Part shown: one piece after another, positions 8,831-27,061 of the stretch
How positions within the stretch are numbered: the first letter of the stretch is position 1
Layout: each line of letters starts with the position of its first letter
From: a bacterium
Lineage (GTDB): Bacteria; Hydrothermota; Tepidihabitantia; Tepidihabitantales; Tepidihabitantaceae
Assembly (NCBI GenBank): GCA_046485285.1
Contig: JAWOHE010000013.1
Location: 1 to 27,638, forward strand
Length of the DNA stretch: 27,638 bases
Direction of reading: 5' to 3'
Program-made: the position numbers and the translations under genes
The notes under the pieces: generated by a model
Seen by the model: the letters and a program-made list of their open reading frames with translations, nothing else
Databases searched by the model: none
What the model was told of the DNA's origin: nothing

Positions 8831-8858
8831 ATTATAGACCCGCTCCCGAGAGTGTCAA
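8831..8858 (-). promoter_or_regulatory. Consensus sigma70 promoter of the rpmA operon
   Basis: TTGACA-16-TATAAT. Confidence 0.85.
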
Positions 8859-8880: not shown

Positions 8881-8904
8881 CGGGGCGGGCTCGCGCCCGC
8901 CCCG
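8881..8904 (-). terminator. Hairpin downstream of the Omp28-like gene
   Basis: 10-bp perfect stem CGGGGCGGGC/GCCCGCCCCG with GCGA tetraloop on the minus strand. No U-tract. Confidence 0.5.
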
Positions 8905-8928: not shown

Positions 8929-9975
8929 TCAGTCGGCCAGCACGAACTTGCCCTGCGCGGTCCCGTCCGACGCGGTCAGCCGCCAGGCGTAGATCCCGGC
9001 CGCCAGCCGGCGACCGGCGGCATCGCGGGGCTCCCAGCGCACGGTCTCGGGACCCCGGGCCGTGCCGGACTCCTCCGCCACCAGCCGCCCGGCGCTCGAA
9101 TACACTGCGAGCTGCCAACGCGAGCCGGGGGCGGCAGTGAACCTGACCTCAGCCCGGTCGCGGACCGGGTTCGGACCGCCGGTCGCGCTGAGCCGGGGCG
9201 CCGGCGTCCGCCGCCCTTCCGCGACGCCGGTGAGTTCGAGCAGCTTGACGATTCCGCCCTGATAGACCGGCCGCGAGGAATCGGACTGCTGGGTGGGATT
9301 CTGGAGGAACACGACGAGGTTGCAGTTGGCCTCGACCCAGTCGCTCTCGATCGTGAACGGCTGATACGCGGTGTCCGCGCCCATCGCCGGGACGGTGACA
9401 CTCGTGCCGGCGATGCCGGTGACGTAGTCGCGGCAGACGTGGTTGTGCCACTGGTCGCCGTTCGGCGCCGGGGAATTGATGCTGTCCTCGGTGATGACGA
9501 CGTACAGATTGGCGTCAATCGGCGCTGAAGTCTCGTTCACCATCTCGATTGCCAACTCGCCCGCACCGGCCCCGGGCAGGTAACTGCCGGTCAGGTTAAT
9601 GCCGACCTCGGCCGGCTCGCCGAGCTTCTGCTGGACCCAGTAGTCCCACGACGAATACTGGTAGCCGCGGTTCTTGCCGTCGATCCAGGCCCACGGCGTC
9701 GCGTAGTACCAGTTGCCGCCCGAGTAGTAGGGCGGCGGGTAGCTGAACCAGCGCTGCCGCGCCTCGGCGCAGTAGAGCGGATAGCCGGAGTTGACGTGCC
9801 ACTCGATGGCCGCGATCTGGCCCGGGTAGTTCGCCTTGATCTGGTCCACCGCCACACTGGCGGCGTTGCAGCTGCCTCAGCCTTCGGAGTAGGCCTCTTC
9901 GATGACCACGACCCGGTCAAAGCCGAAGCCGACAACGACACAGGCAAGCAGGGCAGCGACAATCAGCTTCTGCAC
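8929..9975 (-). CDS. Omp28-related thioredoxin-fold selenoprotein (UGSC) with C-terminal T9SS/FlgD-like domain, 348 aa
   Basis: AGGAGG SD and GTG 9975; signal peptide; RVVVIEEAYSEG-U(TGA 9877-9879)-GSC in frame with the 8929..9855 ORF; IEWH, TPWAWIDG, LYVVITED, HNHVCRD, VVFLQN; C-terminal PNP...AGRLV...AGIY. Confidence 0.88.
9847..9865 (-). promoter_or_regulatory. Putative bacterial SECIS hairpin
   Basis: CGCCGCCA-GUG-UGGCGGUG. The loop follows 19 nt after UGA and begins with G. Confidence 0.7.
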
Positions 9976-10009
9976 GGTTCCTCCTGTTCGGTCGGGATTG
10001 CGCACAATC

Positions 10010-10039
10010 AATATACCGCAGCCGGCACGCGCCTGTCAA
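10010..10039 (-). promoter_or_regulatory. sigma70 promoter of the Omp28-like selenoprotein gene
   Basis: TTGACA-18-TATATT. Confidence 0.65.
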
Positions 10040-10045
10040 GCCCGG

Positions 10046-11443
10046 TCAGCGGCGTGGCCGGGCGCGGAAGGCGTGGAGAAAGACTTCCTTGTTGTAGTTG
10101 AGCCGGTTGAGCGCGAAAGTCCCGAGCACCTGCACCGTCCGGACCACCGTCCGACTGCGCCGCTCCTGGATCCGGGCCAGCAGCGGCAGGCAGGCGAAGC
10201 GGGCGAGCCCGCTGACCAAGAACAGGAGGTGGTAGTTGACGAAGGTCCGGCCGAAGAGCTCGAGCCGGAACCCGGCGAGAGCCTGGGCGATCGCCCCGCC
10301 CGCCAGCGACGCGGCGAAGGTCGCCAGCCCGACGACGACCCCGTAGATCGCGAAGTAGCTCTCCTTGCGCACCGGGTTGTCGCCGAGCGCGAACAGCAGG
10401 TTGACCAGCCCGAGGTTGGCCCCGGTCCAGAACAGGCCGTTGAGCACGCCGTCAATCCAGATCGGCAGCCGGAACGTCGGCGTCGCGATCACCCAGAGCA
10501 GCGGCATCACGCCGACGAACGCAAAGCTGATGACCGCGGCCGGCTTCGGGCCGAAGCGGTCGATGTGCCAGCCCCAGAAGAGCTGGAACAGGATACCGGT
10601 CGTCCCGCCGAGGATGGCGTAGACGCCGACCGAGCTGAATGAGAACTGGAGGTTGGTCAGGAGGTGCGCCATGTAGAACGGCGAGGCGAGCGTGCAGGTC
10701 AGGAACCAGACCCCGAGAAAGACAATCAGCCGGCGGAACTGGCGCTCCTCGACGAGCGGCCCGAGCAGCCGCTCGCGCAGCGGCACGTGCGGCCGCGGCA
10801 CCAGCGGCGGCTCGGGCTGGCGCGCGAGCAGCAGCGCCGACGCGACCCCGAACGCGACCGCGAGCAGGTAGGCGAGCCCGAAGCCGAGGTCCGGGTCGTG
10901 GGTCTTGACCCAGTCCATCGCCCGGCCGGCCAGGACGGTCAGCACCATCCCGATGCCGCCGAGGATGGCGTTGCGCCGGCCGAAGAACCGGCCCCGGCCA
11001 TCCTCGGGCACGAGGTCGCTCATCCACGAATTCCAGGTCGTCCCCGCGAACGCGAGCAGGACGTTATAAGCGAAGACGACGGTGAAGAACAGCCCAAGTC
11101 CCAGCTCGAGCTTCAGCAGTAGGTACGGCACCAGGACGATGAACGCCGCCCGGCCGACCCCGCTCGTCCAGACCGTCAGCCCGCGCCGGGACCCGGCGCG
11201 CCGGACGAGCGACCCGGCCGCGAGCGCGACGACCGAGACCAGCGCCGGTATCGCGGCGAGGAGCCCGATGTGGAACGGCCGGGCGCCGAGGTGGAGCGCC
11301 AGCCCGGTCAAGAACATCCCGCCCGCCAGCACGAGGTGGCTGTTGGCGAACGCGCCCTCGACGATCGAGATCCGAAGGCCGCGCCGAACTTCCGCCGGGC
11401 TCAGCCCGACGGCCCCGGCCGCCGGCCCGGGTTCGCCGCTCAC
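10046..11443 (-). CDS. MFS transporter
   Basis: About 12 hydrophobic segments, WMSDLVP..RGRFFG.RN, WGWHIDRFGPK. GTGA overlap with the lipA stop. Confidence 0.9.
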   Translation of the reverse strand: MSGEPGPAAGAVGLSPAEVRRGLRISIVEGAFANSHLVLAGGMFLTGLALHLGARPFHIGLLAAIPALVSVVALAAGSLVRRAGSRRGLTVWTSGVGRAAFIVLVPYLLLKLELGLGLFFTVVFAYNVLLAFAGTTWNSWMSDLVPEDGRGRFFGRRNAILGGIGMVLTVLAGRAMDWVKTHDPDLGFGLAYLLAVAFGVASALLLARQPEPPLVPRPHVPLRERLLGPLVEERQFRRLIVFLGVWFLTCTLASPFYMAHLLTNLQFSFSSVGVYAILGGTTGILFQLFWGWHIDRFGPKPAAVISFAFVGVMPLLWVIATPTFRLPIWIDGVLNGLFWTGANLGLVNLLFALGDNPVRKESYFAIYGVVVGLATFAASLAGGAIAQALAGFRLELFGRTFVNYHLLFLVSGLARFACLPLLARIQERRSRTVVRTVQVLGTFALNRLNYNKEVFLHAFRARPRR

Positions 11444-12375
11444 CGGCCCGCTCTCCTGCCGCCGGGCGCCAGCAGCGTGTCGGCGAGATAGGAACTCCGG
11501 ACCAGCGGCCCGCAGAACGCCGCCCGGAAGCCGAGCGCCCGCGCCTCATCCTCCCACTCCGCGAACCGCTCCGGCGCGACGTGACGCGCCACCGGCCGGC
11601 AGTGCCGCGCCGGCCGCAGGTACTGGCCGATGGTGACGATGTCACAGCCGGCAGTTCTCAGGTCGCGAAGCGCGTGGGAAACCTCTTCGTCGGTCTCGCC
11701 CAGCCCGGCCATCAACCCGCTCTTCGTCGGGATGCCGGGCGCCAGCCGCTTCGCGGTCGCGAGCACCTCGAGCGAGCGGCGATAGCCCGCCCGCCGGTCG
11801 CGCACCTCCGGGCTCAGCCGCTCGACCGTCTCGAGGTTGTGGCCGAACACCGCCGGTCCGGCCGCGAGCACCTGCCCGATGAGCTCCGCCCGGCCGCAGA
11901 AGTCGGGCGTCAGCACCTCAACCCGGACGCCACCCGTTCCTGTCCCCGCATCCTCGCCGCCGGCTTCCGGGTTCCGCGCCCTGACCTCGGACACGGTCCG
12001 GGCGAACTGCCCGGCACCGAGGTCGTCAAGGTCGTCCCGGTCCACCGAGGTCAGCACGACGTAGCGCAGGTCCAGCTCGGCCACCGCCGCCGCCACCCGG
12101 CCCGGCTCGCTCTCATCGACCGCGCCGCCCGGGTTGACGGTCGCGACCGAGCAGAACCGGCAGTTCCGCGTGCAGACCGCGCCAAGAATCATGAAAGTCG
12201 CGGTCCCCCGGTTCCAGCACTCGGCGAGATTCGGGCACCGGGCCGCACTGCAGACCGTCACGAGCCCGTGGGCCCGGAGCCGGGCGTTGACCCGCTCGAA
12301 CTCCTCGCCCTGCGGCAGGCGGGCGCGCAGCCAACGTGGCTTGCCCGCGCGGTCCGGTTCCGGGGCAGGGTTCAT
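11440..12375 (-). CDS. lipA: Lipoyl synthase
   Basis: KPRWLR, CX4CX5C (CSAARCPNLAEC), CX3CX2C (CTRNCRFC), TSVDRDDL, HNLETV, IGQYLRP, RSSY. Confidence 0.96.
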   Translation of the reverse strand: MNPAPEPDRAGKPRWLRARLPQGEEFERVNARLRAHGLVTVCSAARCPNLAECWNRGTATFMILGAVCTRNCRFCSVATVNPGGAVDESEPGRVAAAVAELDLRYVVLTSVDRDDLDDLGAGQFARTVSEVRARNPEAGGEDAGTGTGGVRVEVLTPDFCGRAELIGQVLAAGPAVFGHNLETVERLSPEVRDRRAGYRRSLEVLATAKRLAPGIPTKSGLMAGLGETDEEVSHALRDLRTAGCDIVTIGQYLRPARHCRPVARHVAPERFAEWEDEARALGFRAAFCGPLVRSSYLADTLLAPGGRRAGR

Positions 12376-12397
12376 CGGCGTGACGGGTTAGGGGCGA

Positions 12398-14005
12398 CTA
12401 GGCGCGAATTCTCAGCCCGGACGGCTTGCAGTTCCAGACGCACTCGAAGCAGCGGATGCACTCTGCCTGGTTCGGGTCCTGGTAGGCCGAGATGTTCATC
12501 GGGCAGACCCGCTGGCAGAGCGTGCAGGAAGTGCACCGGTCGCTCACGACCTCCATCCGCAGCAGGCTCACCTTGTTGAACAGCGCATAGACCGCGCCGA
12601 TCGGGCAGACCAGCCGGCAGAACGGCCGCTTGATGCCGATTGCCGCGACGACCACCAGCAACAGGAATCCGACCTTCACCCAGTACAGCCAGCCGACCAG
12701 CCCGCGCAGGGCATTGACCGGGTCCCAGAGCACGAGCGGAATACCGGCGCCGAGCGTCCCCTGAGGGCAGAGCTTGCAGAACCACGGCTCGATGGTCAGG
12801 TAGGAGGCAAGGCCGGCGACGAGCAGCAGCACGGCGTACTTGGCCGTCGTCGAGGGCAAGCTCACCTTCGCCAGCCGGTCCAGCAGCAGGATGACGAGCC
12901 CGGCCGCGGCCGCCAGCGCGATGCCGAGCCCGAACCCGGACAGCGGTCCGATGGCGAACTCCGCCGGCCCGAGCCAGCCGAGCAGGAACGCGGCCGGCAC
13001 GGCAATCGCGGCCGCGACCCAACCGCCGGAAAGCCCGAGGACGAGAATTCCCGCGAACCCGGCGACGACCCCGAAGCCGGCGCCGAACCTCAGCCACGTC
13101 AGTGCGCCGATGCCGACCGCAACGAGGAAACTGCCCACCCAGAGCCGCCTCGGGACGTCGAACTTGCCTGTCAGCGCAACTGCCAGCAGTGCGCCGGCGA
13201 ACGGCAGCCAGCCGAACAGCAACACCTGCCACCACGCCAGCTTGAGCAGCGCGACGAGCAGGAACCCGGCGACCGCCGCGACGCCGGCGATGACGCCGAA
13301 CGACAGCCACTTCTTCGCCTTTGCCCGGCGCCCGACCGGGACCTTCTGGAGCAGGTCCTGCCACAGCCCGAACGGGCATATCCACGCGCAGGCCGCCCGG
13401 CCGACCAGCGCGCCGACGACGATGAACGCGCCCAGCGCCAGCCACGGGATGGTCCTCATCCCGATCATCTGCTGGGTCGAGCCGATCGGGCAGGCGAACA
13501 CCGCCAGCGGCCCGCCATAGCAGTTGAGTATCGGCTGAGGGATGTGCTTGAAGAAGCCCTGGTAGAGAATCTTGTCCTGCAGGTAGGCAAGGATGTAGGC
13601 GTTGAGAACCACCGCCGAGATGACCTGCACGACCCGGAACGGCGCGACCCGCCGCCTGACGAACAGCGTCACGACCAGCATCAGCGCGATGAACGGCAGG
13701 GTCGCGAAGAGCAGCACCCGGGCCGGCGCGATGCCCTCGAAGAAAGCCAGCCAGGCTGAGACCAGCAGCCCGGCCGCGACAATCGCTCCGAACGCGGGCC
13801 AGCGCCGGCGGTCCTCCGGCCGGCCGGCGTAGAGTGCCGCGAAGAGCTCGACCAGCACCAGCGGCAGCCAGCCGAACGCGAGCACCCGCCACCAGTTGAA
13901 GCCGGCGAACGCTACCAGCGCCGCAATCACCAGCGTCGAAAGCCCGGCGATGACGAAGAACCAGGTCCAGCGGACCCTGCCGCCGGACCGCCGGGCGTCA
14001 GTCAA
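12398..14005 (-). CDS. Polytopic membrane 4Fe-4S binding protein (NapH/MauN/RdxA-like)
   Basis: NCYGGP...CPIG, GRAACAWICPFG, FCKLCPQG, RPFCRLVCPIG, CTSCTLCQRVCP, CIRCFECVWNC; many TM helices; TTG start with GGGAG SD. Confidence 0.9.
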   Translation of the reverse strand: MTDARRSGGRVRWTWFFVIAGLSTLVIAALVAFAGFNWWRVLAFGWLPLVLVELFAALYAGRPEDRRRWPAFGAIVAAGLLVSAWLAFFEGIAPARVLLFATLPFIALMLVVTLFVRRRVAPFRVVQVISAVVLNAYILAYLQDKILYQGFFKHIPQPILNCYGGPLAVFACPIGSTQQMIGMRTIPWLALGAFIVVGALVGRAACAWICPFGLWQDLLQKVPVGRRAKAKKWLSFGVIAGVAAVAGFLLVALLKLAWWQVLLFGWLPFAGALLAVALTGKFDVPRRLWVGSFLVAVGIGALTWLRFGAGFGVVAGFAGILVLGLSGGWVAAAIAVPAAFLLGWLGPAEFAIGPLSGFGLGIALAAAAGLVILLLDRLAKVSLPSTTAKYAVLLLVAGLASYLTIEPWFCKLCPQGTLGAGIPLVLWDPVNALRGLVGWLYWVKVGFLLLVVVAAIGIKRPFCRLVCPIGAVYALFNKVSLLRMEVVSDRCTSCTLCQRVCPMNISAYQDPNQAECIRCFECVWNCKPSGLRIRA

Positions 14006-14214: not shown

Positions 14215-15690
14215 TCAGAACCTCGAGATGAGCTGGGCCTTCACGCCCCGGAACGGCGCCTCGAACCGGCAGACCCCGCCCGAACAGGTGTAGCCGCCGC
14301 GCTCGGCCCCGACCCGGACCCGGAGCATGTTGCGCTGGGTTATCGACCAGACCGCCTCGAACACCGGCCAGCCCTGCTCGCCGTTGTAGCGCTTGTCGAG
14401 CTTCTCGCTGACGTGCTGGTAGCCGACCGTGAACAGGAGCGCCTCGTCGATGCCGTAGGAGAACGCCGCCGCCAGCTCGCGGTACTTCCAGGTCTCGCCC
14501 TCGGTCGAGCGCTCGTCGACGAACGCTAGCTCACCCTCGAGCGCGAAGCTGTGCCGGCCGACGGCGTGGTTCAGGTGGACCACCGGCTTGTCGGTCGCCC
14601 GGTGGGCGGTGCCGAGCTCGACGTTCTGCTGGACCATGTGGTTGAACGCCAGCTCGAACGTCCAGTCGCTGGTCGGATAGCGCGCCTTGCCCTCCCACTC
14701 GACCACGCCCGCGCTGGTGTTGTCGTGGGTGAACAGCCGGCCGTAGTCGGCCTCGAGGTAGAGCGTCGACCACGGCGTCGTGGTCGCGGTCACCCCGAAC
14801 CCGCGCTCGTCGACCCCGCGGTTCATCGCCACCCCGGACTTTGTCGGCGTCGGCGGGTCGTTCCAGTGGTAGAGCCCGGCCGGGAACCCGATGTTGTCGT
14901 AGTCCATCAACTGGCCGAGCACGCTGAACCCCGGGAACGTCACCGTCCCGCTCGCGTACCAGCCGAGCCCGCTCTCCCGCCCGCCCAGCCCGGCCGCGGT
15001 CCCCAGCCGGCGGCAGACCTCGCCGTACACCTCGACCGGCCCGACCGCCGAGGTCAGGTTGCCGCCGAAGAGCTCGGTGAACGCCCGCGCCTGCGGGTCG
15101 CTCTCGCGGTTGACGCGGACGTAGCGCCCGCCGAACCCACCCCACCGGGCCGGCCGCGACTCGAAATTCGCGCCCAGCACCTGGTCGGAGGTGTCCGCGG
15201 CGTTCACCAACCGGTAGGTGTTCTCCTGGAAGAATATGTCGCGCAGCCGCGCGCCGAGCAGGACCAGCTCGGACCGGAACGGCAGCCGCGCGGTCCCGCG
15301 CAGGCCGTGCAGGCTCTTGTAGTGCCGGAACTCGTCGTCCTTGTAGGCCCGGAGCGCCAAACCCTTGCCGAAATCCTGGTAGAACCGGCCGTAAAGCACC
15401 TCGAGCTGCTTCGGGCTGTAGGCGACGGTGTAGTCAAGCAGGCGGAGCGGCCGACGGGCGTCGCTCCACGGCTTCGACGGCTCGTAGGCGAACAGCCCGA
15501 GGTTGCCGCGTAGGTCGCCGTAGCGCAGGTTCATATCGAGCAGCTCCTCGAGCTGGGTCGAGAACGTCGAGTCGAAAAAAGACCAGAACTCGGCCCGGTT
15601 CACGCCGCTGACCGACAGCTCGGCCGCCCGGGCCGGGCCCAGGACGGCGAGACACGCAACCGCGAACAGGCTGACCCTGACTGCCTTCAT
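14215..15690 (-). CDS. DUF6029-like outer-membrane beta-barrel protein
   Basis: Signal peptide, GRFYQDFGKGLALR, amphipathic strands, C-terminal RGGYTCSGGVCRFEAPFRG...SRF ending in Phe. Confidence 0.82.
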   Translation of the reverse strand: MKAVRVSLFAVACLAVLGPARAAELSVSGVNRAEFWSFFDSTFSTQLEELLDMNLRYGDLRGNLGLFAYEPSKPWSDARRPLRLLDYTVAYSPKQLEVLYGRFYQDFGKGLALRAYKDDEFRHYKSLHGLRGTARLPFRSELVLLGARLRDIFFQENTYRLVNAADTSDQVLGANFESRPARWGGFGGRYVRVNRESDPQARAFTELFGGNLTSAVGPVEVYGEVCRRLGTAAGLGGRESGLGWYASGTVTFPGFSVLGQLMDYDNIGFPAGLYHWNDPPTPTKSGVAMNRGVDERGFGVTATTTPWSTLYLEADYGRLFTHDNTSAGVVEWEGKARYPTSDWTFELAFNHMVQQNVELGTAHRATDKPVVHLNHAVGRHSFALEGELAFVDERSTEGETWKYRELAAAFSYGIDEALLFTVGYQHVSEKLDKRYNGEQGWPVFEAVWSITQRNMLRVRVGAERGGYTCSGGVCRFEAPFRGVKAQLISRF

Positions 15691-15717
15691 CTTCCTTGAG
15701 TCTTCGCGCCGGGGCCG

Positions 15718-16248
15718 CTACTCGCCCGCATCCTCGGGGCTGTCCAGCGGCTCCTCGGGCAGCCATTTCAGGAACTCGGCCCTGATCTTCGCCTCGTCAC
15801 CCTTCTTGTAGCCGATGTGGGTGTAGACGACCTCGCCCTTGGTGTTAATCAGGTACGAAGTCGGCTTGATGATGATGCCGTACGCGCTCTTGACCTCCTG
15901 CTGCGCGTCGAGCAGGCAGACGTACGGCCACCTCTTCGCCGCGACGAACGCCTTGACCTTGGCCCCGTCCGCCGGCTTGTCCACCGACAGCGCGATTATC
16001 TGCAGGCCGTAGGGCGCGAGCTCCTCGTAGATCGGCACCAGCGCGTCGAGCTCGGCGATGCAGTTCACGCACGGCAGGTCCCAGCACTCCATGTAGACCG
16101 GCCCGCGCTTGAGCATCTCGGACAGCGTGTGCTCCTCGCCGTTCACGTCCGTCAGCGTAAAGTCCTGCGCCTTCTCGTACTTCACCTCGGCGGCGAAAAC
16201 CGGCCCGGCCGCCAGCGCTACCACCACTGCCAGTCCCAACAGCTTCAT
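15718..16248 (-). CDS. TlpA/ResA-like periplasmic thiol-disulfide oxidoreductase
   Basis: Signal peptide, DFTLTD.NG, W..PCVNC..E, LSVD, cis-Pro motif KPTSYLIN; GGAGGTG SD. Confidence 0.92.
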   Translation of the reverse strand: MKLLGLAVVVALAAGPVFAAEVKYEKAQDFTLTDVNGEEHTLSEMLKRGPVYMECWDLPCVNCIAELDALVPIYEELAPYGLQIIALSVDKPADGAKVKAFVAAKRWPYVCLLDAQQEVKSAYGIIIKPTSYLINTKGEVVYTHIGYKKGDEAKIRAEFLKWLPEEPLDSPEDAGE

Positions 16249-17093: not shown

Positions 17094-18617
17094 CTACTCC
17101 GGCCTGACCACTTTCACCCGCTCAACCCGCTCGCCCGAGTCCACCAGGCAGTAGTACACCCCCGGGGGACGGTCGCCGAGCGCAACGCTGACGACGTGCT
17201 GTCCTGGCCCGAGCCGGCCCCGGTACAGCCGCCCGCCGGCCCGCCCCCCGGCGTCGAACAGGGTGATGCTCACGTCCGCGGACGCGGCCAGTCCAAACCG
17301 CAGTATCGCGACCCCGCCGCGACTGACGACCGCCGCCTGCCCGGACCCGGGCCGGGACGGCCGTTGCTCCTCGATCGCCGTGAAGTGGTAGCCGTCAAAC
17401 CAGACTTGGTCGGTATCCAGCTTCGCATATCCAAGGTACCCGCCGCTGGTCAGCCAGGAGTATCCCACCTGCGCGCCGATGCCCAGCACCATCCGGAAGT
17501 CGTTGCGCACACCCCGCCCCTCCCAGACATTCGGTCCGACCGGGCGCGAGTAGGCGTACACCAGCGAGTCGCGGTTGCGGGTCGGCTCGGGCATCGTCGC
17601 CGCGCCGCGGAAGAGGTCGTCGGCGTATCCCCGGCGCACGCGCGGGAGCCTCGCGTCCCAGGTCACCCGCGTCTGGTTCACCGGCGGCCAGAACCCGGTG
17701 GTCCACCCCGCGCCGCCATTCGTCGTCCAGCCCTGGCCGACCCCGACGATGCTGTCGGCAACGCTGCTGCAGTAAAGCACCACCGCCGCCTGCGCCGTGC
17801 GCCCGGCCTCCCGGTCCGCAGCGACCGACGCCGCCCACACCCGCCCGTTGCCGGCCGAGTCGAGCCGGGCGACCGCCGAGTCCGCGCCTGCGAGGTTCTC
17901 GGTGTAGCGTGTGACCTGCACCCACGCCGAGTCCCGGCTGTTGCAGGCGAGGTACACGCAGCCGTCCCCGCCCGCAGCCAGCGCCGGCAACTCGCAGCCG
18001 GTCGCGGCGACCCGGTGGTTGCCCCAGGTCTGGCCCGAGTCGCTCGAGGCGGCGAGGTGTATCTCTCCCGCCTGCGTCTCCCAGGCCGCGAACAGACGCT
18101 GGGGCGACTCGATGTTCAGATCTGCCGCAACCCGCACGACGGTGTCACTGCCCGGCACGTGGATCCATGCCGGGCTGACCATCATCGGCCGGTGCCGCAG
18201 CAGCCAGAGGCCGATGCCCGGTGGGTTGCCGACCAGCAGGTCGTAGAGCCAGGTGCCGTTAGCGTCACTGCCCACCCGGAGCTCGTAGTCCGCGAACGAC
18301 GCGAACGGGTCGTCGGGGGCAATCTCGTAGGCAGTCGTCCAGCTCCAGCCTCCGTCGGTCGATCGCCAGACGTGGACCCGGTCACCCGGGCCGCCGCCCG
18401 GCTCGAGCAGGCCGACGTAGATGGTGCCGGCCGTGTCCGAGTCAGTGACCAGCTTGCCGGTTGTAAGCGCGCGGCCGACCGCGCCGACCAGCACGTCGTC
18501 GCCCCAGTCGCGCATCGTGTCGGCGAGGACCCGGACTTCAGGGGCGTGGCAGTACTCCACCCGCCCGGACGGCACGTGGTAGACAGGGAAAGCGCAGAGC
18601 AGGACCATCAGCAGCAC
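17094..18617 (-). CDS. Secreted BNR/Asp-box beta-propeller protein with T9SS-like C-terminal domain
   Basis: Asp-boxes RSTDGGWSW, SSDSGQTW, TTNGGAGW; C-terminal LFDAGGR...PGVYY...KVV; AGGAGG SD. Confidence 0.8.
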   Translation of the reverse strand: MLLMVLLCAFPVYHVPSGRVEYCHAPEVRVLADTMRDWGDDVLVGAVGRALTTGKLVTDSDTAGTIYVGLLEPGGGPGDRVHVWRSTDGGWSWTTAYEIAPDDPFASFADYELRVGSDANGTWLYDLLVGNPPGIGLWLLRHRPMMVSPAWIHVPGSDTVVRVAADLNIESPQRLFAAWETQAGEIHLAASSDSGQTWGNHRVAATGCELPALAAGGDGCVYLACNSRDSAWVQVTRYTENLAGADSAVARLDSAGNGRVWAASVAADREAGRTAQAAVVLYCSSVADSIVGVGQGWTTNGGAGWTTGFWPPVNQTRVTWDARLPRVRRGYADDLFRGAATMPEPTRNRDSLVYAYSRPVGPNVWEGRGVRNDFRMVLGIGAQVGYSWLTSGGYLGYAKLDTDQVWFDGYHFTAIEEQRPSRPGSGQAAVVSRGGVAILRFGLAASADVSITLFDAGGRAGGRLYRGRLGPGQHVVSVALGDRPPGVYYCLVDSGERVERVKVVRPE

Positions 18618-18626
18618 CGACCCCTC

Positions 18627-21191
18627 CTATTCCAGCTTCACCAGCTTGCACCGGGCCGCACGGCCCGGGGAAGGTTCCGGCTCGGCGAAGTAGACGCCCC
18701 GCGCCGTCTGCCCGCCGAGCTCGTCCGCCCCGTTCCAGGCAACCGCGCCGCTCGCGCCGACCGCCAGCGTTCGCACCAGCCGCCCCGCGCAATCGCGGAT
18801 GGTGACCGCGCCGCCCGGGGCGGCCTCAAACCGGACCTCGCGCCGGAACGGAACCGGCGCCGCGCGCAGGGTCACCGGGCTGGTGCTGGCCGGCTTCGCT
18901 TCGGCCACTCCGCCGTAGGGCGAGAGCACGCCCTTGATGCGGGGAACCCCGGCCGGGTGACTGTTGATGCTGTCCACCAGCCCGGCGTAGACCATCAGCA
19001 TCTCGCCGCCCGGGCTCGCGGCCAACGCCGGCACCGGAACCTGCCGTTCGTCGGCGACGAGCGGGAAGGTGTCGAACACCGTCGTGCTACGTCCGACCCG
19101 CGCGCCCTGGACCAGCCAGGACGAACCTGCCAGCTCGGCCCAGACGAGGTAGTGATGCGCCCCGTTGAAGACAACGTCCGCGTTGTCGTAGTAGTTCGGG
19201 GACTGCCGGACGAATGCCGGCGGCGAGTCGAGCGCAACCCCGGCCGTGTCCACCCGCAGGCAGCAGATGGCATAATCGGCGCCCTGCCGGTACACCCAGG
19301 TGACGAAGTAGTTGTCGCCATCGAAGGTCAGTGCGGGTTTGCGGTCATGCCCGGGCAGGTTGCTGTAGTAGCGTACTGAATCCAGGGCAGTGCCGTCGTG
19401 GGACAAGCGTCTTCCGGCAACCTCGCTTCCGTAGTGCAGACGGGACTCAGTCCACAGAACGAGAAGCCGTGTTCCATCGAATCGTGCTATCGGGTAGTAG
19501 TTCCAAGTCGTCGAGGGGGGGGTTACGTCAAAGCCGCCCGGATGCGTTACCGAGCCGTCCGTGAGCACGAAAGTTCCCCGGATGTTCGACCCACTGCCTG
19601 CTCGCCAGACTACGAACCACGAGTCTCCGGCGACACAGACGCTGGCTTCCAAGCTGCCCCCGGACGACAGTACCAAGTTGACCGTATCCACCACGCGGCC
19701 CAGTGTGTCAACTCTTGTCCCGTGGAGAGCCTGGCTGAGGCTGCGCAAGTCGGACCAGATGACCAGGAATTGCGTCCCGTTGAACGCCACCTGCGGCGAC
19801 TGTTGGTCGCCCGGGACCGAGCAGATGACAAAAGGGACCGGGTCGAGGGCCGCGCCCGCGTGAGATATTCGCATCCCGTAGATGTCGAGCCCGGTCGTCT
19901 GGCCGCGGTAATCGGTCCAGGCGACGAGATACTGCCCGCCGCCGTCGGCAATTGCCGGCTGCAATTGGGCGTAGTAGAGCGGTATCCACAGGTCCAGCAG
20001 GCCGAATCCTTCCGGGTCGAGCACGCTGTCTCGTGTCGACACCCGGGCCGCCCGGATGTCCCCGCAGACCGTTCCATCCGGTATATCCCGCCAGGCCACC
20101 AGCGCGAGCGTGTCCGCCCCGGCAACACAGGGCTGGTCCTGCGTCCCGGCCGCGACGGTGACCGGGACCCCGTCCGGGTTGGCGACACTGCCGTCCGCCC
20201 GCACACGCGCGGCGTAGAGGTCGGGCACGGTCGCGGAGTTGCGCGAATCAACCCAGACCGCCAGCGCGTCGTCGCCGAGCGCGGTCAGCCGCGGCCGCCG
20301 CTGGGGGCCGGGTGCGGCGGCGACGCGGACCGGCGCGCTGTCGAGCACCGCGCCTGCCGGGGACAGCCGCACGCCCCAGATCTCCGAATCGAGCAGGGCG
20401 CTTTCCTCCCAGGCGATGAGCGCGTTCTCACCGAGTCTGACCACCGCCGGCCGTTCCTGGTCGTACCGGTCCGGCCACAGCTCAATGCCGGCGGTGTCGA
20501 GGACCGCCCCGTCCGGTCCCAGCCGCGCGCACCGGACCTGCGGATACTGACCGTTCCGCCAGTCCTCCCACGCGACGACGAAGCCGCTGTCGGTTGCGGC
20601 GACGGCGGGTTGCGCCTGCGCGCGGCCCGCACGGCAGACCGGCACCGCCGGACCGACCGCACCCGACGAATCGAGGATTGCCGCGTAGACGTCGCCGTCC
20701 CCGGACTGCTCCTCCCAGGCCACCAGCCAGCGCCCGTGCCCATAGGCAGCCGCCGGGCTGCGCGAGTCGCCGCTCCCGGCGCGGATGGGGAGTGCCTGCG
20801 GGTCGAGCAGGTTGCCGCCCGCGTCAACCCGCGCGCCGAATATGTCCCAGCGCGTCCCGCTGCGACGGTCCTCCCAGACGACCAGACACGCACCCGCGCC
20901 CCCGGCGACCTGCGGACTGCGCTGGTCCAGCGAGCAGTCCGAAACCACGAACGCGTGGGAGTCGAGCACCTCGCCCGAATGCGCGACCCTTACAGCGAGC
21001 AGATCCCAGTCGGTCCCGGTCCGGGTCTGCCAGGCGACAAGGAAGTTGTCGCCGCAGACCGCCGCGGCGGGCATCTCCTCGATGCTGTCCCCCGGCCACC
21101 AGACCGGGGTGGTGTCGAGGATGAAGCTCTCGGGCACGGGCTGGCCTGCGGCAAGCGCGGCAAGCAGGACGACGGGAACGGCGATGCGCAT
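18627..21191 (-). CDS. Secreted 14-repeat beta-propeller protein with FlgD/T9SS-like C-terminal domain
   Basis: Signal peptide; repeats P.VA.DG..YLVVW.D.R...DIYGARV...G.VLDP; C-terminal AGRLVR...WNG.D...GVYF. Confidence 0.85.
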   Translation of the reverse strand: MRIAVPVVLLAALAAGQPVPESFILDTTPVWWPGDSIEEMPAAAVCGDNFLVAWQTRTGTDWDLLAVRVAHSGEVLDSHAFVVSDCSLDQRSPQVAGGAGACLVVWEDRRSGTRWDIFGARVDAGGNLLDPQALPIRAGSGDSRSPAAAYGHGRWLVAWEEQSGDGDVYAAILDSSGAVGPAVPVCRAGRAQAQPAVAATDSGFVVAWEDWRNGQYPQVRCARLGPDGAVLDTAGIELWPDRYDQERPAVVRLGENALIAWEESALLDSEIWGVRLSPAGAVLDSAPVRVAAAPGPQRRPRLTALGDDALAVWVDSRNSATVPDLYAARVRADGSVANPDGVPVTVAAGTQDQPCVAGADTLALVAWRDIPDGTVCGDIRAARVSTRDSVLDPEGFGLLDLWIPLYYAQLQPAIADGGGQYLVAWTDYRGQTTGLDIYGMRISHAGAALDPVPFVICSVPGDQQSPQVAFNGTQFLVIWSDLRSLSQALHGTRVDTLGRVVDTVNLVLSSGGSLEASVCVAGDSWFVVWRAGSGSNIRGTFVLTDGSVTHPGGFDVTPPSTTWNYYPIARFDGTRLLVLWTESRLHYGSEVAGRRLSHDGTALDSVRYYSNLPGHDRKPALTFDGDNYFVTWVYRQGADYAICCLRVDTAGVALDSPPAFVRQSPNYYDNADVVFNGAHHYLVWAELAGSSWLVQGARVGRSTTVFDTFPLVADERQVPVPALAASPGGEMLMVYAGLVDSINSHPAGVPRIKGVLSPYGGVAEAKPASTSPVTLRAAPVPFRREVRFEAAPGGAVTIRDCAGRLVRTLAVGASGAVAWNGADELGGQTARGVYFAEPEPSPGRAARCKLVKLE

Positions 21192-21194
21192 CGC

Positions 21195-24143
21195 TCAGTC
21201 CAGCAGGACGGACTTCCGTTCAGCGAGGCCGCCCGCGGCGTCGGTCAGCCGGACGAAGTAGACCCCGGCCGCGACCGGTCGGCCGGACGCGTCGCGCCAG
21301 TCCCAGCCCGGCCCTCCCCCGGCGCCGGGCTCGACGACGGCGACCCGGCGCCCGTCGGTCCCGAACACCTCGAGCCTGAGCAGTCCCGGCCCGCCCGAGC
21401 CGGCGCACGTCAGCGCTTGCCCGCGCCGCAGGACGCTCGCCCCGGCCAGCACCGGCAAGCCGCCGGGCGGTCCTTCCTCGAGACCGGTCGGTAGGTACGC
21501 GAACTGCCAGGCAACGCTGAAACGGCTCCACAGCGAGTCGTCGAAGACACGACACGTCCAGCGATGAGTCGCGCCCGGGACGATGACATCGTCGGGCACG
21601 GTACAGCGGGGCGCTTCTGAGCAGTACCGCCAGAGCGTATCCCCGCCGAGCATTACCCGGAAGTCGAAGCTGTCGAGCGCGGGCCTGAGTGAGTCAACCA
21701 ACAGGACTACCGGCAGTTCCGGGATGGAGTGGTTGTGAGGCGGCCAGACGAGCCCTGGCGGCGCCGGTCGACCGTCGTCGTGCAAGAGCCGTCCCCAGAT
21801 GCGGTTCCGCCCGCACGGGCGGTGATTCACGGAGTCGGCCCGGGCCGAGTAGACTGCCATGAAACGGGACGAGCCCCCCGAACAGACTCCCGGGTTCGCC
21901 GTAACATCATCGGCTTCGGCAATGCCCAGGCTTTCGACTGCGCCACTCACAGGGTCGTACCACACCCCTTTCAGAAGCCTTCCTTCAGGCCAGACGGCGA
22001 GATACCTCGGGCTTCCGTAGGCGACTGCGGGCTCGGGCTTTGCGGGCGACCCGCTGGCGGACAGTATCATCGCGTCTCCGACTCCTCCCTCGCGGGAAAC
22101 CGGGACGCCGTAAATGGCGGCCAGCGAAGTCTGTTCGAAGACCACCAGGAAATCCCGTCCGTCGCTGGCGACCGCCGGAGGACCCTCATAGAAGTGCGCC
22201 GGAGTCAGGTCCAGTCCCTCAGGATCCGGGTAGGTCCTGTCCGGGGCGATGCGCCCTGCGTAGATCTCGTTCGCGTATCCCGAGTTCCACCGCTGGTCGA
22301 TCCAGGTCAAGAGGCCCAGTCCGGAGTCGGCATAGACGATGTCGGGCTTGTAGCCCTCGCCGCTGATGCCAACTCCCCTGCGGTGGATCGCCCCGCCCTG
22401 AGCGACCCAGGCGGCATCGAGGTGCCTCAGGTTGCCCCCGGTCTCACGGTACCAGGCAACGTAGAAGTATGTCCCATCGAATGCGACCGCCGGACCGTGC
22501 TCTCCCACCGACGTGCCGGGAGAGAGCCAGATACCGTTCCCGTCAAGCACGTCGCCATCCCTGGTGACCCGCGTGCCGAAGATCTCGCTGCCATAGCCAC
22601 CGGAAACGCGCAGGTCTCTCCACACGACGAGGTAGCAACTGTCTCCCCAGGCGACATCAGCGTATCCCTGCTCCGCAGCCGCCGCGCTGATGAGCAACGG
22701 CACGGAATCGAGCAAGCCTCCGGAACCGGAGACGCGCATGCCCCGGATGTCCTCGCCGGTGCCGACATCACGGTCCTCCTGCCACACCACAAGGTAGTTC
22801 TCTCCATCAAACGCAAGCGACGGCCGTGACTGGTTCGCGAACTTCGGCACGAGGGCCTGCGTGTCCGGCACCGGGAATGCGCTGTCGAGCACGGTTCCGT
22901 CCGGGCTGATGCGGGTCGCGAAGACGTCGGCGTCGTTCGGCCAGCGGAAATCGAGCCAGACGAGAAGCCAGTTGCCCGCGCCGGCGGCGACTGCCGGGTT
23001 GGACTCTGTCTGAGGCTTGCGCGTCCAGGCTGACCCGCCCGGGTCGAGAACGACCCCGCTCGGGGTCACCCGCGCGCCATAGATGTCCGGGTTGCCGTCG
23101 CGCCAGTCCTGCCACGTGACTGCGTAGTTCGCCCCGTCGAACGCCACCGCCGGGTTCTCCTGCGCGTGGCTGTACGTGCAGACCGCAATGGGACGCCGGT
23201 CGAGCACTACGCCATCCGGGCTCACCCGCGCCGCGAGTATATCTGCCAGCGCGCCCTCGCCGGCCCGCCAGACAGCGAGGAAGTTCTCTCCATTGGTTGC
23301 CACGACGGGAACCCGGGCGTCACCACCCTCGCCGGCGATGATGATTGGCATCGTATCCAGCGGCACCCCCGCGCTGTCAAGCACGGTGCCAAGTATGTCC
23401 CACTGCCCGGTCCATTTGCTCTCCCACGCAACCAGGCTGCCGTTCGGCAGTGCCGCAACCGCCGCAAGCTGGTTTGCGTGCAGCAGGGAGAGCCCGTGGT
23501 GTATGCGCAGGCCATTGGGGTAGCGGACCTGTCCCGTGGTGGAGACCGGTGTTGCCCGGATGTCCCAGCGACGACCATCAGGCGAGGCATTCCACGCGAC
23601 GATGAACTTGGTGCCGTCGTAGGCTACCGCCGGGTTGTAGTGCCGCTGGAGGTCATCGGCTATAACTATCCCCCCGGGGTTGACTCTGCCGTTGGCCGAT
23701 ACAAGCGCGCCTCCAATCTTCGGAACGTAGTTCGTTGCATACCCCCAGAGAACGAGGTAACTGGTATCGCCCCAGGCCACCGCGCATCGTGCGGCTCCGG
23801 ACTGGGTAAATGTCCTGATGATGACCCCACCGGGGTCCAGAAGTTGGCCCGTGGCGGAAACCCGCGCGCAGTACACCCGGTTGTCCGGGTAGAGGGCCTG
23901 CTTCCAGACCACCAGGTAGTCCGTGCCGTTCGAGGCCACCGCCGGAGTGAGTACCGGATCCGCGGTTCTGGTCAGGCCAATCGGTACAGTGTCCAGCATG
24001 AACCCGACCGTGTCCTGCACAAAGGCCTGCGGCGACTCGCCCCGGGTGCTGTTGACCTGCTCGACAATGGCGTGCGGGTCGAACGGCAACTCACCTGAAA
24101 CTGCGGCCGCCAGCGTGCAGACCAGCGAGAAGAGCGTTCGCAT
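21195..24143 (-). CDS. Secreted 14-repeat beta-propeller protein with extra Ig/Fn3-like domain and FlgD/T9SS-like C-terminal domain
   Basis: Same repeat as its neighbours; extra PAPPGLVWP...WSRFSVAWQF segment; C-terminal DGRRV...WDWRD.SG..VAAGVYFVRL. Confidence 0.85.
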   Translation of the reverse strand: MRTLFSLVCTLAAAVSGELPFDPHAIVEQVNSTRGESPQAFVQDTVGFMLDTVPIGLTRTADPVLTPAVASNGTDYLVVWKQALYPDNRVYCARVSATGQLLDPGGVIIRTFTQSGAARCAVAWGDTSYLVLWGYATNYVPKIGGALVSANGRVNPGGIVIADDLQRHYNPAVAYDGTKFIVAWNASPDGRRWDIRATPVSTTGQVRYPNGLRIHHGLSLLHANQLAAVAALPNGSLVAWESKWTGQWDILGTVLDSAGVPLDTMPIIIAGEGGDARVPVVATNGENFLAVWRAGEGALADILAARVSPDGVVLDRRPIAVCTYSHAQENPAVAFDGANYAVTWQDWRDGNPDIYGARVTPSGVVLDPGGSAWTRKPQTESNPAVAAGAGNWLLVWLDFRWPNDADVFATRISPDGTVLDSAFPVPDTQALVPKFANQSRPSLAFDGENYLVVWQEDRDVGTGEDIRGMRVSGSGGLLDSVPLLISAAAAEQGYADVAWGDSCYLVVWRDLRVSGGYGSEIFGTRVTRDGDVLDGNGIWLSPGTSVGEHGPAVAFDGTYFYVAWYRETGGNLRHLDAAWVAQGGAIHRRGVGISGEGYKPDIVYADSGLGLLTWIDQRWNSGYANEIYAGRIAPDRTYPDPEGLDLTPAHFYEGPPAVASDGRDFLVVFEQTSLAAIYGVPVSREGGVGDAMILSASGSPAKPEPAVAYGSPRYLAVWPEGRLLKGVWYDPVSGAVESLGIAEADDVTANPGVCSGGSSRFMAVYSARADSVNHRPCGRNRIWGRLLHDDGRPAPPGLVWPPHNHSIPELPVVLLVDSLRPALDSFDFRVMLGGDTLWRYCSEAPRCTVPDDVIVPGATHRWTCRVFDDSLWSRFSVAWQFAYLPTGLEEGPPGGLPVLAGASVLRRGQALTCAGSGGPGLLRLEVFGTDGRRVAVVEPGAGGGPGWDWRDASGRPVAAGVYFVRLTDAAGGLAERKSVLLD

Positions 24144-24146
24144 CGC

Positions 24147-26747
24147 CTACTCCAGTTTGATGGCCTTCCGGCGCTCGACCGGCCCCGGCCCGACCGCCTC
24201 GACCAGGTACACCCCGCTGGGCAGTTCCGCGCCCTGTCCATCCCGGCCGTCCCACTCCCGCGCCTCGCGGTCCAGCACCCGGACGCGGCGCCCGGCCGCG
24301 TCGTGGATGTGGAACCCGTGGACTCCCGACTCCCGCGCGACGACCAGTCGTACCGACTGCCGGAACTGTGCCGGGTGGACGGCGAACCCGGCCCCTGCCC
24401 CTGCCGTCACGGTGTCGCCGGCCACCCCGCCGGTGACCGGCCGGCGGAAGTCCTCGCGCGGCAATCCGAGCAGCGCGGCCCAGATGCGCGCCAGCGTATC
24501 CCACGGCATTCCGGGCTGGGTCCGGCCGGAGAAGACCAGTAGCCCTCCGCCCGGACCGGACGCGACGGAAGGGGAAGCCGGCCTGGCGAGTGGGTCAGCC
24601 AGCGATACCGCAAACGAGTCAATCTTGCCACACTCACGGCTCAGCATGGTTCCCTTGATGACCGTCGAGTAGTCGCCCGCCCACGCGACGATGAAGTGCT
24701 CGCCGTTGAAGTCGACCGTCGGGTATAGCATGTTGCCGCCGCCCGGGCCCCAGGAGAGGATTCTGCCGCTGGGATCGAGGACCTCAGCCGACGGCGTCAC
24801 CCGCGTGCCCGATATCCGGCTGTAGGTAGTCCAGACAACCAGGTAGTTCTCGCCGTCGAACGCCACGTCCGCGAATCTGCCGCCGCTCGTTGAGATGTTG
24901 AAGCCGCTCGGGTCAACGACCGTTCCACCGGGACGAACTCGCGCGCCCTTGACGTAGTGGTCCGTGTGCCAGACCACCAGGTAGTTCTGGCCGTCGAACG
25001 CCACTGCCGGGTTCCGCTTCGTGTCGGTCCCGACCGACACGATAAACCCCCCGGGGTCGAGGACGGTCCCGTCCTCTCGCACGCGCGCGGCGCGAATCTC
25101 GTCCTGGCTCCAGTCCCGGTGCCAGGCGACAAGGAACTGGCCGGCGCCGCAGGTCACATCCGGTTCTGCTCCGGAGTCGGCGAGTAACGTGCCGTAGTTG
25201 TCGAGCACGCGGCCCGACTCAGTCACGATGGTCACGCGCGGACCGCCGGGGTACGCCCAGACGACCGCGTAGGACGACTCGCCGCGCGCAACCGCCGGGG
25301 TCAGTTCGTCACCGCCGCCCATTGCCACCGGGAAGCTCGCCGTGTCGCGCGGCATGCCATCGGGCCCGAGAACCCGCGCGCAGATGTCCGTGCGCCAGTA
25401 AGCGCCCGTCGTGTCGCGACTCTCCCAGACCGCGAGGTAGCCGCCGCGGCCCGCCGCCAGCGCCGGTGCCGTCTGCCCGGTCCAGCAGGAGTGAAGAGCA
25501 GGCAGCCGCTCGGGCTCACCGGTCACCGCTCCGGCCGTGTCGACCCCGACCCCGTACAAGCTGACCTTTACGGCGCGATTGTCATTCAGGCAGACCAGCC
25601 AGCCGCCGGCGGTGGCGCAGGAATTCGCAAGGTACTGGCCGTATTCTCGGACCGCCAGCCGGATGCCGGCCGTGTCGATGACAACACCCTCGCGCGTCAT
25701 CCGGCATCCCCAGATGTCTTCCCTCGATGACGTCAGGAAGGTCTGCCATGTCACCAGGTAGCGGCCGTGCCCGTATGAGACCCGGGGCTCGGTCTGCGGC
25801 ACCCAGCCGGCCGGCGAGACCTGAATGTGGTCGCCGACCGGCCGGCCTTCCGAAACCCGCGTCGCGTAGACGGCGCGCGGCGTGTCCTCGTTCTGCCAGA
25901 CAACGATGAAGTCCTGTCCATCCGACGCCACCGCCGGGTGCCCTGCGGAGTGGCGCAGGCGGCGGTCCCCGGCGATGTCAAACCCGGCCGGGTCGAGTAT
26001 CGTCCCGTTTCCCATGACCCTCGCCCCGCGCGTGGTCCAGGCTCCTGCTTCGTCGCTCTTCCAGACAACGAGGAACTCGCTTCCGCTCCAGGCCGCGTCC
26101 GGCAGGGTCTGGATGCCGGGGCCGGTACCGATCGGCAGCCCGCCCGGGTCGAGCAGCGTGCCGTCGAAAGCCACCCGCGCCCCGAACACATCCGTGCCGG
26201 TCCGGTTGTCCGTCCATACCACCAGCCAGGCCGAATCGCCCGCGGTCACCCGCGGGTAGAGTTGGTCGTTGGCGACCACGCTGACCGGGAACCCCCCGGG
26301 GTCCAGCACCGCCCCATCGAAGGCGACGCGCGCGGCGTAGATGTCGAAGTTTCCGGACCGCCGGTCCTGCCACGCGACGAGGTGGCAGGCATCCCCGCGG
26401 GCTATTGCCGGCCGAGCCTGCTGGCCGGCGGCCCTGCAGATGCTGACCTGACTCCGACTGGCTCTCCGCACTTCACTCGTGACCAGGCCGCCCGAGATGT
26501 CGCCACTGCTGTTGTTATCGCACCAGACCGCGAAGCACAGCGAGTCGCCGGCGGCTACGGCGCCGTACCACTGGTCGAGCAGAATGCTGGCCGTTCCCGT
26601 GTCCACAACCCACATCGCCGGGTCGGTGCCGCCTGAGAAATGCCCGGCGTCGGCGCGCGCGGACACCTCCCCCGCCGGCCCGGTGGCCGGTGCTGACGCG
26701 AACAGGCACAATGCGGACGCTACTGCCAGCAGGATGGTTTCCTCCAC
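24147..26747 (-). CDS. Secreted 14-repeat beta-propeller protein with FlgD/T9SS-like C-terminal domain
   Basis: Same repeat; C-terminal DAAGRRVR...WDGRD..G..LPSGVY. Start moved to about GTG 26747, where the signal peptide begins just after the promoter. Exact start uncertain. Confidence 0.82.
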   Translation of the reverse strand: MEETILLAVASALCLFASAPATGPAGEVSARADAGHFSGGTDPAMWVVDTGTASILLDQWYGAVAAGDSLCFAVWCDNNSSGDISGGLVTSEVRRASRSQVSICRAAGQQARPAIARGDACHLVAWQDRRSGNFDIYAARVAFDGAVLDPGGFPVSVVANDQLYPRVTAGDSAWLVVWTDNRTGTDVFGARVAFDGTLLDPGGLPIGTGPGIQTLPDAAWSGSEFLVVWKSDEAGAWTTRGARVMGNGTILDPAGFDIAGDRRLRHSAGHPAVASDGQDFIVVWQNEDTPRAVYATRVSEGRPVGDHIQVSPAGWVPQTEPRVSYGHGRYLVTWQTFLTSSREDIWGCRMTREGVVIDTAGIRLAVREYGQYLANSCATAGGWLVCLNDNRAVKVSLYGVGVDTAGAVTGEPERLPALHSCWTGQTAPALAAGRGGYLAVWESRDTTGAYWRTDICARVLGPDGMPRDTASFPVAMGGGDELTPAVARGESSYAVVWAYPGGPRVTIVTESGRVLDNYGTLLADSGAEPDVTCGAGQFLVAWHRDWSQDEIRAARVREDGTVLDPGGFIVSVGTDTKRNPAVAFDGQNYLVVWHTDHYVKGARVRPGGTVVDPSGFNISTSGGRFADVAFDGENYLVVWTTYSRISGTRVTPSAEVLDPSGRILSWGPGGGNMLYPTVDFNGEHFIVAWAGDYSTVIKGTMLSRECGKIDSFAVSLADPLARPASPSVASGPGGGLLVFSGRTQPGMPWDTLARIWAALLGLPREDFRRPVTGGVAGDTVTAGAGAGFAVHPAQFRQSVRLVVARESGVHGFHIHDAAGRRVRVLDREAREWDGRDGQGAELPSGVYLVEAVGPGPVERRKAIKLE

Positions 26748-26751
26748 GGCT

Positions 26752-26780
26752 AGTGTAGTCCGGGGCGTTCCCCGTGTCAA
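26752..26780 (-). promoter_or_regulatory. sigma70 promoter of the propeller gene array
   Basis: TTGACA-17-TACACT. Confidence 0.7.
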
Positions 26781-27061
26781 CCCGGTTCTACGCTCGGCAA
26801 CCCGCGCGGACCCCTGCGCGCCAGCACTTCCCGAGCGCCCCGGCTGGCGCCTACCCGGGCGCGTCCCAAGCCGCGATACGGGGACGGAGGTGAGCACAAA
26901 ACGGGTCGGCATCAATTGCCTGGCTCCGACCGGTCCGGTAGTCAGCCGGGTCGTGGGCGGCTACACCCAGAGCACCTGAATCAGCCCGGCCAGTCTGGCC
27001 GCTGGAGCCAGGCCCGGTCCGCGCCGGCCGGGCCCACTGCGCGCCCCACCCCCACCTGCCT

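Follow-up and report, generated by a model that had tools for sequence, protein, structure and literature searches.

A truncated Omp28-related gene call in a Hydrothermota genome conceals a predicted exported selenoprotein of a divergent GOS_C branch

Two described proteins or protein groups are among the closest to the gene reported here, which lies on the minus strand (8929..9975) of a 27,638-nucleotide stretch of contig JAWOHE010000013.1 (assembly GCA_046485285.1) from a bacterium of the phylum Hydrothermota; the whole stretch that was analysed is called the window below. The first group is GOS_C, which was predicted in 2008 and comprised 74 sequences with selenocysteine (Sec, U) and 312 homologs with cysteine, the UxxC motif being set in a thioredoxin-like fold (Zhang & Gladyshev; PMC2398784). 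The curated family NF045500, 'Omp28-related selenoprotein', is equated with 'hypothetical protein GOS_C' in a table of a 2026 review (PMC13188914). The second is HBP35 of P. gingivalis. According to one study (PMC2907840), HBP35 is a cargo of a type IX secretion system (T9SS), and a modified form of it occurs on the cell surface; its reduction of insulin requires C48 and C51, it complements an E. coli dsbA mutant, and its C-terminal part binds hemin.

It is highly probable that the product of the gene in the window is an exported selenoprotein, 348 residues long, in which UGA33 is read as Sec. The gene is genuine and is systematically mis-annotated by gene callers. The open reading frame (ORF) listing started it at a GTG and gave a product of 308 aa (8929..9855, minus strand). 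When the strand was read from 9975 to 8929, a single open frame was found, the sole interruption being a TGA at codon 33 (9879-9877), which yielded U-G-S-C; no frameshift or other stop occurred within the gene. Upstream of 9855 the frame read VQKLIVAALLACVVVGFGFDRVVVIEEAYSEG-U-GSC from the GTG at 9975-9973, and the read-through product had a hydrophobic N-terminus followed by RVVVIEEAYSEG-U-GSC. A search of genomes of the phylum matched the read-through protein as one hit (query 1-348, 1 TGA). The gene and its expression signals were as follows:

8929..9975, minus strand: predicted complete coding sequence of the selenoprotein (348 codons and a TGA stop; Sec at codon 33)
9973..9975, minus strand: GTG start codon, read from the sequence and from homologous starts
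9877..9879, minus strand: UGA predicted to encode selenocysteine (U33), which opens the UxxC redox motif
9868..9870, minus strand: TGC, Cys36, predicted resolving cysteine of UxxC (C36 invariant in 29/29 sequences)
8929..8931, minus strand: true stop codon, TGA
10010..10039, minus strand: sigma-70-like promoter, TTGACA, 18 nt, TATATT (11/12 consensus matches)
9980..9985, minus strand: Shine-Dalgarno (SD) sequence AGGAGG, 4 nt before the GTG start

An equivalent start codon was present in 33/33 homologous frames, followed by a K/R-rich segment and then a hydrophobic stretch. Promoter sites of the quality of that at 10039..10010 were seen twice in the region, compared with 0.1 expected from shuffles. 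The initial annotation, a reading of the DNA letters, had held that the gene-track start was too late, that a promoter, an AGGAGG, a signal peptide and the strand RVVVIEE lay in frame upstream, and that a TGA was the only break; all of these elements were recovered, the strand as a conserved R-V-V-V-x-E-E.

If the TGA were a true stop, the real gene would be the 308-aa ORF from GTG 9855, which is what gene callers report both here and in public records, and the upstream 32 codons would be an unrelated short ORF or leader. However, such a product would be without strand b1 and the entire redox motif of the thioredoxin fold, and without the signal peptide needed by cargo that bears a C-terminal sorting domain (CTD). 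The promoter and SD precede 9975, not 9855, and GTG 9855 falls within the loop of the hairpin described below. Further, the upstream 32 codons were kept in frame in all 34 inspected copies and were contiguous with the remainder of the protein in the Cys forms. Termination at codon 33 is very unlikely.

The read-through protein was searched in 272 genomes of the phylum with stops read through, and 150 matches were listed. Exactly one TGA was present in 147 of these (two of the 147 had one further stop). The three listed matches without TGA began at query residues 53, 91 and 106, past residue 33, and so did not cover that position. When frames were inspected individually, the TGA was in the U column in 34/34 (30 loci; four frames were tandem second copies); this count speaks for the position of the TGA and not for its frequency, because the frame-picking script retained TGA-containing frames only, and the frequency was therefore taken from the 147/150 listed matches. 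The motif varied across the family as U-[GAPS]-[STQG]-C. The 34 frames were conserved on the 5' side of the U column (R-V-V-V-x-E-E-x-Y-x-E-x) and on the 3' side (xxC-xx-[AS]-S...DQI), and R21, E26, E31, U33, C36 and S40 were invariant in an alignment of 29 sequences.

Two Cys forms were found. Protein P0037 (341 aa) was full length and had ...SETCDGC... at the redox site, and a protein of genome G266 had ...GTWCTYCP..., which BLASTP aligned residue for residue with U33 and C36. Homologs with TGA or Cys at codon 33 and with conservation on both flanks had been anticipated by the initial annotation, and both kinds were obtained.

Tandem duplication was frequent among the relatives (loci L022, L024, L031, L043 and L044; genomes G214, G118, G129 and G143). 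Some relatives held four or more TGA-bearing copies; the window's genome held a single copy, and tblastn with residues 1-250 found this gene alone there.

The same truncation was seen in public databases. Query coverage was only 74-88% in 119 of the 120 database homologs listed, as expected from truncated gene calls. Records P0003, P0006 and P0011 started a few residues past the U column, and several truncated records were titled 'Omp28-related outer membrane protein [candidate division WOR-3]'. Public records of the clade are thus N-terminally truncated 'Omp28-related' or 'hypothetical' proteins without signal peptide and catalytic motif. With a model specific to the clade, hundreds of records would be corrected, and more selenoproteins would be counted in these uncultured anaerobes.

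A pseudogene, or an assembly or sequencing error for TGC/TGT, would also give a single in-frame stop, and the assembly is a draft of metagenome type (2.34 Mb in 102 contigs, 88% complete). Public reads consisted of only two DNA runs (4-5% of sampled words), which yielded short contigs of relatives at ~85-95% identity; no change at 9877-9879 was among the differences listed for two low-depth contigs of this kind, and nothing is drawn from these. Against decay or error, 147 listed matches, drawn from 89 genomes that were assembled independently, had TGA at this codon and neither TAA nor TAG, the gene had no frameshift or second stop, and family residues were strongly conserved, with a mean column identity of 55% across the 29-sequence alignment. 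We regard this explanation as extremely unlikely.

The window's genome contained a complete set of genes for Sec synthesis and insertion. selA scored 537.7 bits (cut-off 268) and selB 357.5 bits (cut-off 242); selD (334.8 bits) and tRNA-Sec (73.2 bits) were above their curated cut-offs, and ARAGORN called the tRNA as SeC with anticodon tca. The selD match had one in-frame TGA, so SelD of this genome is itself probably a selenoprotein. On contig C37 of this genome, selD (9674-10585) lay directly beside selB (10662-12542) on the same strand; selA and the gene of interest were on different contigs. Scored at E<=1e-30, selA was present in 84 of the 89 genomes in which a TGA copy was listed, and in 122/272 genomes of the phylum overall. 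A copy lay within 10 kb of selA in nine genomes (G112, G113, G116, G117, G122, G133, G147, G159 and G162). The gap was 0.2 kb in G116 (copy C10 32740-33750, selA 33939-35279).

Read-through of the UGA with another residue, e.g. Trp, Gly or Cys by a suppressor or variant code, is extremely improbable: the inserted residue cannot be told from sequence analysis, but TGA terminates this same gene and is thus an ordinary stop here with no genome-wide reassignment, the Sec machinery is complete, the copies are found together with selA, the corresponding residue of homologs is the redox Cys of CxxC, a classic site of Sec/Cys exchange, and the window's G+C of ~69% is unlike the known code-4 and code-25 lineages. 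Taken from the sequences, the decoding of UGA33 as selenocysteine is strongly supported.

Bacterial selenocysteine insertion sequence (SECIS) elements are recognized by the distance of the apical loop and by a G in the loop. The following hairpin was found downstream of the UGA:

9847..9865, minus strand: SECIS-like hairpin with an 8-bp stem and a GUG loop; it begins 11 nt past the UGA

The stem arms were CGCCGCCA and UGGCGGUG, with the loop GUG between them. In every copy the hairpin, as read from the folds, lay over Ala-Ser and Val/Leu-Asp codons in one of two registers, and synonymous-recoding tests were therefore used instead of a fixed-structure covariation count. The 42 nt past the UGA were more stable than synonymous recodings in 32/33 distinct sequences, with a mean z of -1.71, a statistic whose independence, like that of the codon-weighted test below, is overstated because the family sequences are related. 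z was below -1 in 25/33 sequences and was -1.58 in this gene. With gene-specific codon weights, the mean z was -1.47, compared with -0.12 in 1410 other windows of the same genes, and z <= -1.5 was reached in 16/33 post-UGA windows vs 9.4% of other windows. At the base of the stem, a C:G pair was changed to G:C on both sides in L020, partly via a synonymous change (close relatives). Support for the hairpin at 9865-9847 comes from these family-level tests and not from this window alone. The hairpin that had initially been proposed at SECIS distance was accordingly present, with excess stability across the family.

The read-through protein was divided into the following segments:

9919..9975, minus strand: signal peptide at the N-terminus, from residue 1 to about 19, predicted from hydrophobic N-termini
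9616..9918, minus strand: thioredoxin-like domain, residues 20-120 (alignment, AlphaFold2 model and fold matches)
9226..9615, minus strand: Omp28-type beta-sandwich, residues 121-250 (PF11551, model and 2r2c match)
8932..9189, minus strand: T9SS type A-like C-terminal sorting domain, residues 263-348 (PNP, G.Y and GK.V motifs)

Hydrophobic N-termini were present in 34/34 frames inspected. An AlphaFold2 model was built on the family alignment with a mean predicted local distance difference test score (pLDDT) of 87.9; residues 2-14 were modelled as a helix with low pLDDT. A lipoprotein reading of the LLAC in the signal peptide was considered and rejected, as Cys12 was not conserved in the alignment and there is hence no lipobox.

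The thioredoxin-like domain was modelled with strand b1 (23-29), helix a1 (36-49), strand b2 (54-60), a helix at 70-78, strand at 83-98 and helix at 107-118, and it contained an invariant YPPP motif. U33 directly preceded helix 1. The attacking Cys of the thioredoxin fold canonically sits just before helix 1. The TGA had been placed from the outset at the nucleophilic position of the thioredoxin CxxC, and this placement held, both in the model and in the Cys forms, which put a CxxC there.

Pfam Omp28 (PF11551) matched residues 93-230 with 56 bits (cut-off 34.9). The modelled beta-sandwich spanned residues 124-244 and was followed by a low-confidence linker. In residues 162-182 (9490-9432, minus strand), T-E-D-S and N-G-D-x-W-H-N-H-V-x-R were invariant or nearly so. 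Judged from this conservation, the second domain may have a ligand, metal or heme site made up by the two motifs.

A second beta-sandwich was modelled at residues 263-346. Compared with solved structures by VIA, this domain matched PorU (Z 11.7) and PorZ (Z 10.7), and a profile search of PDB sequences found the PorU CTD at E 7.9e-6. TIGR04183 matched 20/29 family members at E<=1e-3 (best 2.2e-10). K343 and G327/Y329 were invariant and PNP nearly invariant in the 29-sequence alignment, and they fit PNP, G.Y and GK.V, the motifs of such domains. A conserved lysine in T9SS CTDs is described in PMC11285876. The protein's own profile scores were low, with 22.7 bits for FlgD_ig (cut-off 27) and 15.4 bits for Por_Secre_tail (PF18962; cut-off 27). 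Of the T9SS/FlgD-like C-terminal domain that had been proposed, the structural likeness to PorU and PorZ and the matches of relatives stood; the protein's own scores against the domain models stayed below their cut-offs.

The window's genome had two PorU-like genes, one of which has a PorV-like gene immediately after it. Some 30 other open frames of the genome matched the PorU model in its CTD part (around positions 1000-1090), which suggests that the genome encodes a large set of CTD-tagged cargo proteins. From domain content only, we infer that this selenoprotein may be delivered to the surface; export to the cell surface had been put more firmly in the initial annotation, which overstated the case, although a domain of the CTD type is present.

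We propose the following pathway. The gene would be transcribed from its own promoter and translated from GTG 9975. tRNA-Sec, brought by SelB, would decode UGA33, SelB being recruited by the hairpin 11 nt downstream. The precursor would cross the inner membrane via the general secretory (Sec) route, using its N-terminal signal peptide. PorU/PorV-like machinery, directed by the C-terminal domain, would then move the protein to the outer face of the cell. There the U33/C36 pair would act as a fast selenol-based thiol-disulfide oxidoreductase. What we infer in this pathway is that SelB binds the hairpin, by which route the protein is exported, and which redox activity and substrate it has.

Several observations weigh against this reading, together with the scope of the 34-frame count and the kinship behind the recoding statistics given above. 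The gap of 4 nt between SD and start is short. Taken alone in this window of 69% G+C, the hairpin was unexceptional: a 76-nt fold had a z of -0.35 and 71/200 dinucleotide shuffles folded at least as well, and 8.7% of synonymous recodings of this gene were at least as stable. An Rfam scan of 9750-9950 at E<=10 found no SECIS family and returned noise only (snoZ6 and Dictyostelium SRP, E 2.4 and 3.8). TIGR04183 scored 19.3 bits on this protein, below its cut-off of 23. The two PorU-like genes scored 297.9 and 258.2 bits, below the curated cut-off of 420, and the PorV-like gene 77.6 bits, below 250; SprA (TIGR04189) had no match in the window's genome, a result that is uninformative because the model matched no genome at all. 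Among public sequencing runs, no RNA run was listed with this sequence.

Five of the 89 genomes with a listed TGA copy showed no selA at E<=1e-30, which also counts against Sec decoding. In one of them, G145, tRNA-Sec was clearly present (75 bits) and a piece of selA lay at the end of a contig. G133, which is a single contig, had three TGA copies, and its selA was only a 70-bit C-terminal fragment (C1:1645576-1645917), 0.7 kb from a copy; a tRNA-Sec above the cut-off was not found in it. Either assembly indel errors or a decaying Sec trait would account for G133. G128, G130 and G160 were fragmented assemblies with nothing clear for Sec machinery.

Beyond the stop codon of the selenoprotein gene, one further hairpin was seen:

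8882..8903, minus strand: G+C-rich hairpin 3' of the stop, 9-bp stem, GCGA loop, without a T run

This hairpin is possibly a terminator; terminator prediction on the region did not call it. The neighbouring genes encode an MFS transporter, lipoyl synthase, ribosomal protein L27, an MBL-fold protein and fumarase; no functional linkage to them was seen, and the selenoprotein gene carries its own promoter amid these neighbours. The gene for ribosomal protein L27 (8508-8816) had a promoter just upstream, with 12/12 matches to the sigma-70 consensus (8831-8858, minus strand; TTGACA, 16 nt, TATAAT). An AhpC/TSA peroxiredoxin gene (15718-16248) adjoined a gene for a DUF6029 protein (14215-15690), both within 14215-16248 on the minus strand. 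Three consecutive large ORFs of 854, 982 and 922 aa (18627-26915, minus strand) and the ORFs at 12372-13892 and 17094-18617 had no Pfam match at E<=1e-5.

A wider reading of the clade can be offered only tentatively, and we hold it to be rather doubtful. The clade may be Sec-obligate and is often multi-copy, an idea that comes from TGA being found in each of the 147 listed copies that extend to the site. Its members may be the first selenoproteins sent to the outer surface by the T9SS route and may be a main reason why these anaerobes keep Sec machinery; the latter is suggested by the nine genomes named above, in which no more than 10 kb separates selA from a copy. The surface selenol and the TEDS and NGD.WHNH..R site might act together on an extracellular substrate such as heme, metal, polysulfide or protein disulfides. 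We know of no reductant at hand for a surface selenol and of no thioredoxin reductase outside the cell envelope. If the reading is true, this would be a selenoprotein acting outside the cell envelope. Exported selenoproteins are known, for example periplasmic formate dehydrogenase. The initial description, of a Sec enzyme exported to the cell surface as unusual for bacterial selenoproteins, overstated the novelty; a curated family, NF045500, already exists for GOS_C of 2008.

Compared with known families, the protein shared parts of its architecture with several. DUF1223 protein Atu2684 (PDB 2AXO) had the thioredoxin-like and beta-sandwich body in common with it (VIA Z 19.4, 202 residues). Pfam DUF1223 matched around the redox motif at E 6.6e-5, but with 23.5 bits vs a cut-off of 30.7, and 2AXO is without the C-terminal sorting domain. 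Omp28 (PDB 2R2C) was matched at E 6e-4 in the profile search of PDB sequences. For NF033782, the Omp28 family outer membrane lipoprotein, the score was 60.7 bits vs a cut-off of 150; unlike those lipoproteins, the signal peptides of the present family have no conserved lipobox Cys, and sorting appears to be by the T9SS C-terminal domain rather than by a lipoprotein signal. The UGSC-containing selenoprotein (NF041046) has the identical U-G-S-C motif and a presumed thioredoxin-like fold (PMC2398784). It was rejected as the family of this protein, as NF041046 gave no match at E<=1 and the motif varies in the present family. The papers searched yielded no link between selenoproteins and Omp28, WOR-3 or T9SS, bar one apparently coincidental match.

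HBP35 (PDB 5Y1A) was the best solved match, with VIA Z 24.5 and a root-mean-square deviation of 2.5 A over 226 residues (model 16-252), and with E 1.7e-14 by Foldseek. The order of domains was the same, namely a thioredoxin-like domain with a dithiol motif, a beta-sandwich and a T9SS C-terminal domain. The likeness was at the level of fold; identity was 14-15%, and the profile search of PDB sequences missed HBP35. HBP35 has Cys, whereas this protein has predicted Sec, which would place a selenocysteine redox centre on T9SS-type cargo with the HBP35 fold.

NF045500 matched this protein at E 2.8e-12 over residues 20-240 and matched 28 of the 29 members of the present family at E<=1e-3. As GOS_C is described, the two share UxxC in a thioredoxin-like fold. 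However, this protein scored 46.7 bits vs the cut-off of 200 and left model positions 264-377 unmatched. None of the 272 phylum genomes reached the cut-off (best 97.8 bits, a Cys form), which puts the clade outside the curated family as a divergent relative. Rather than a new kind of selenoprotein, the clade is a divergent branch of a selenoprotein group whose first prediction dates from 2008.

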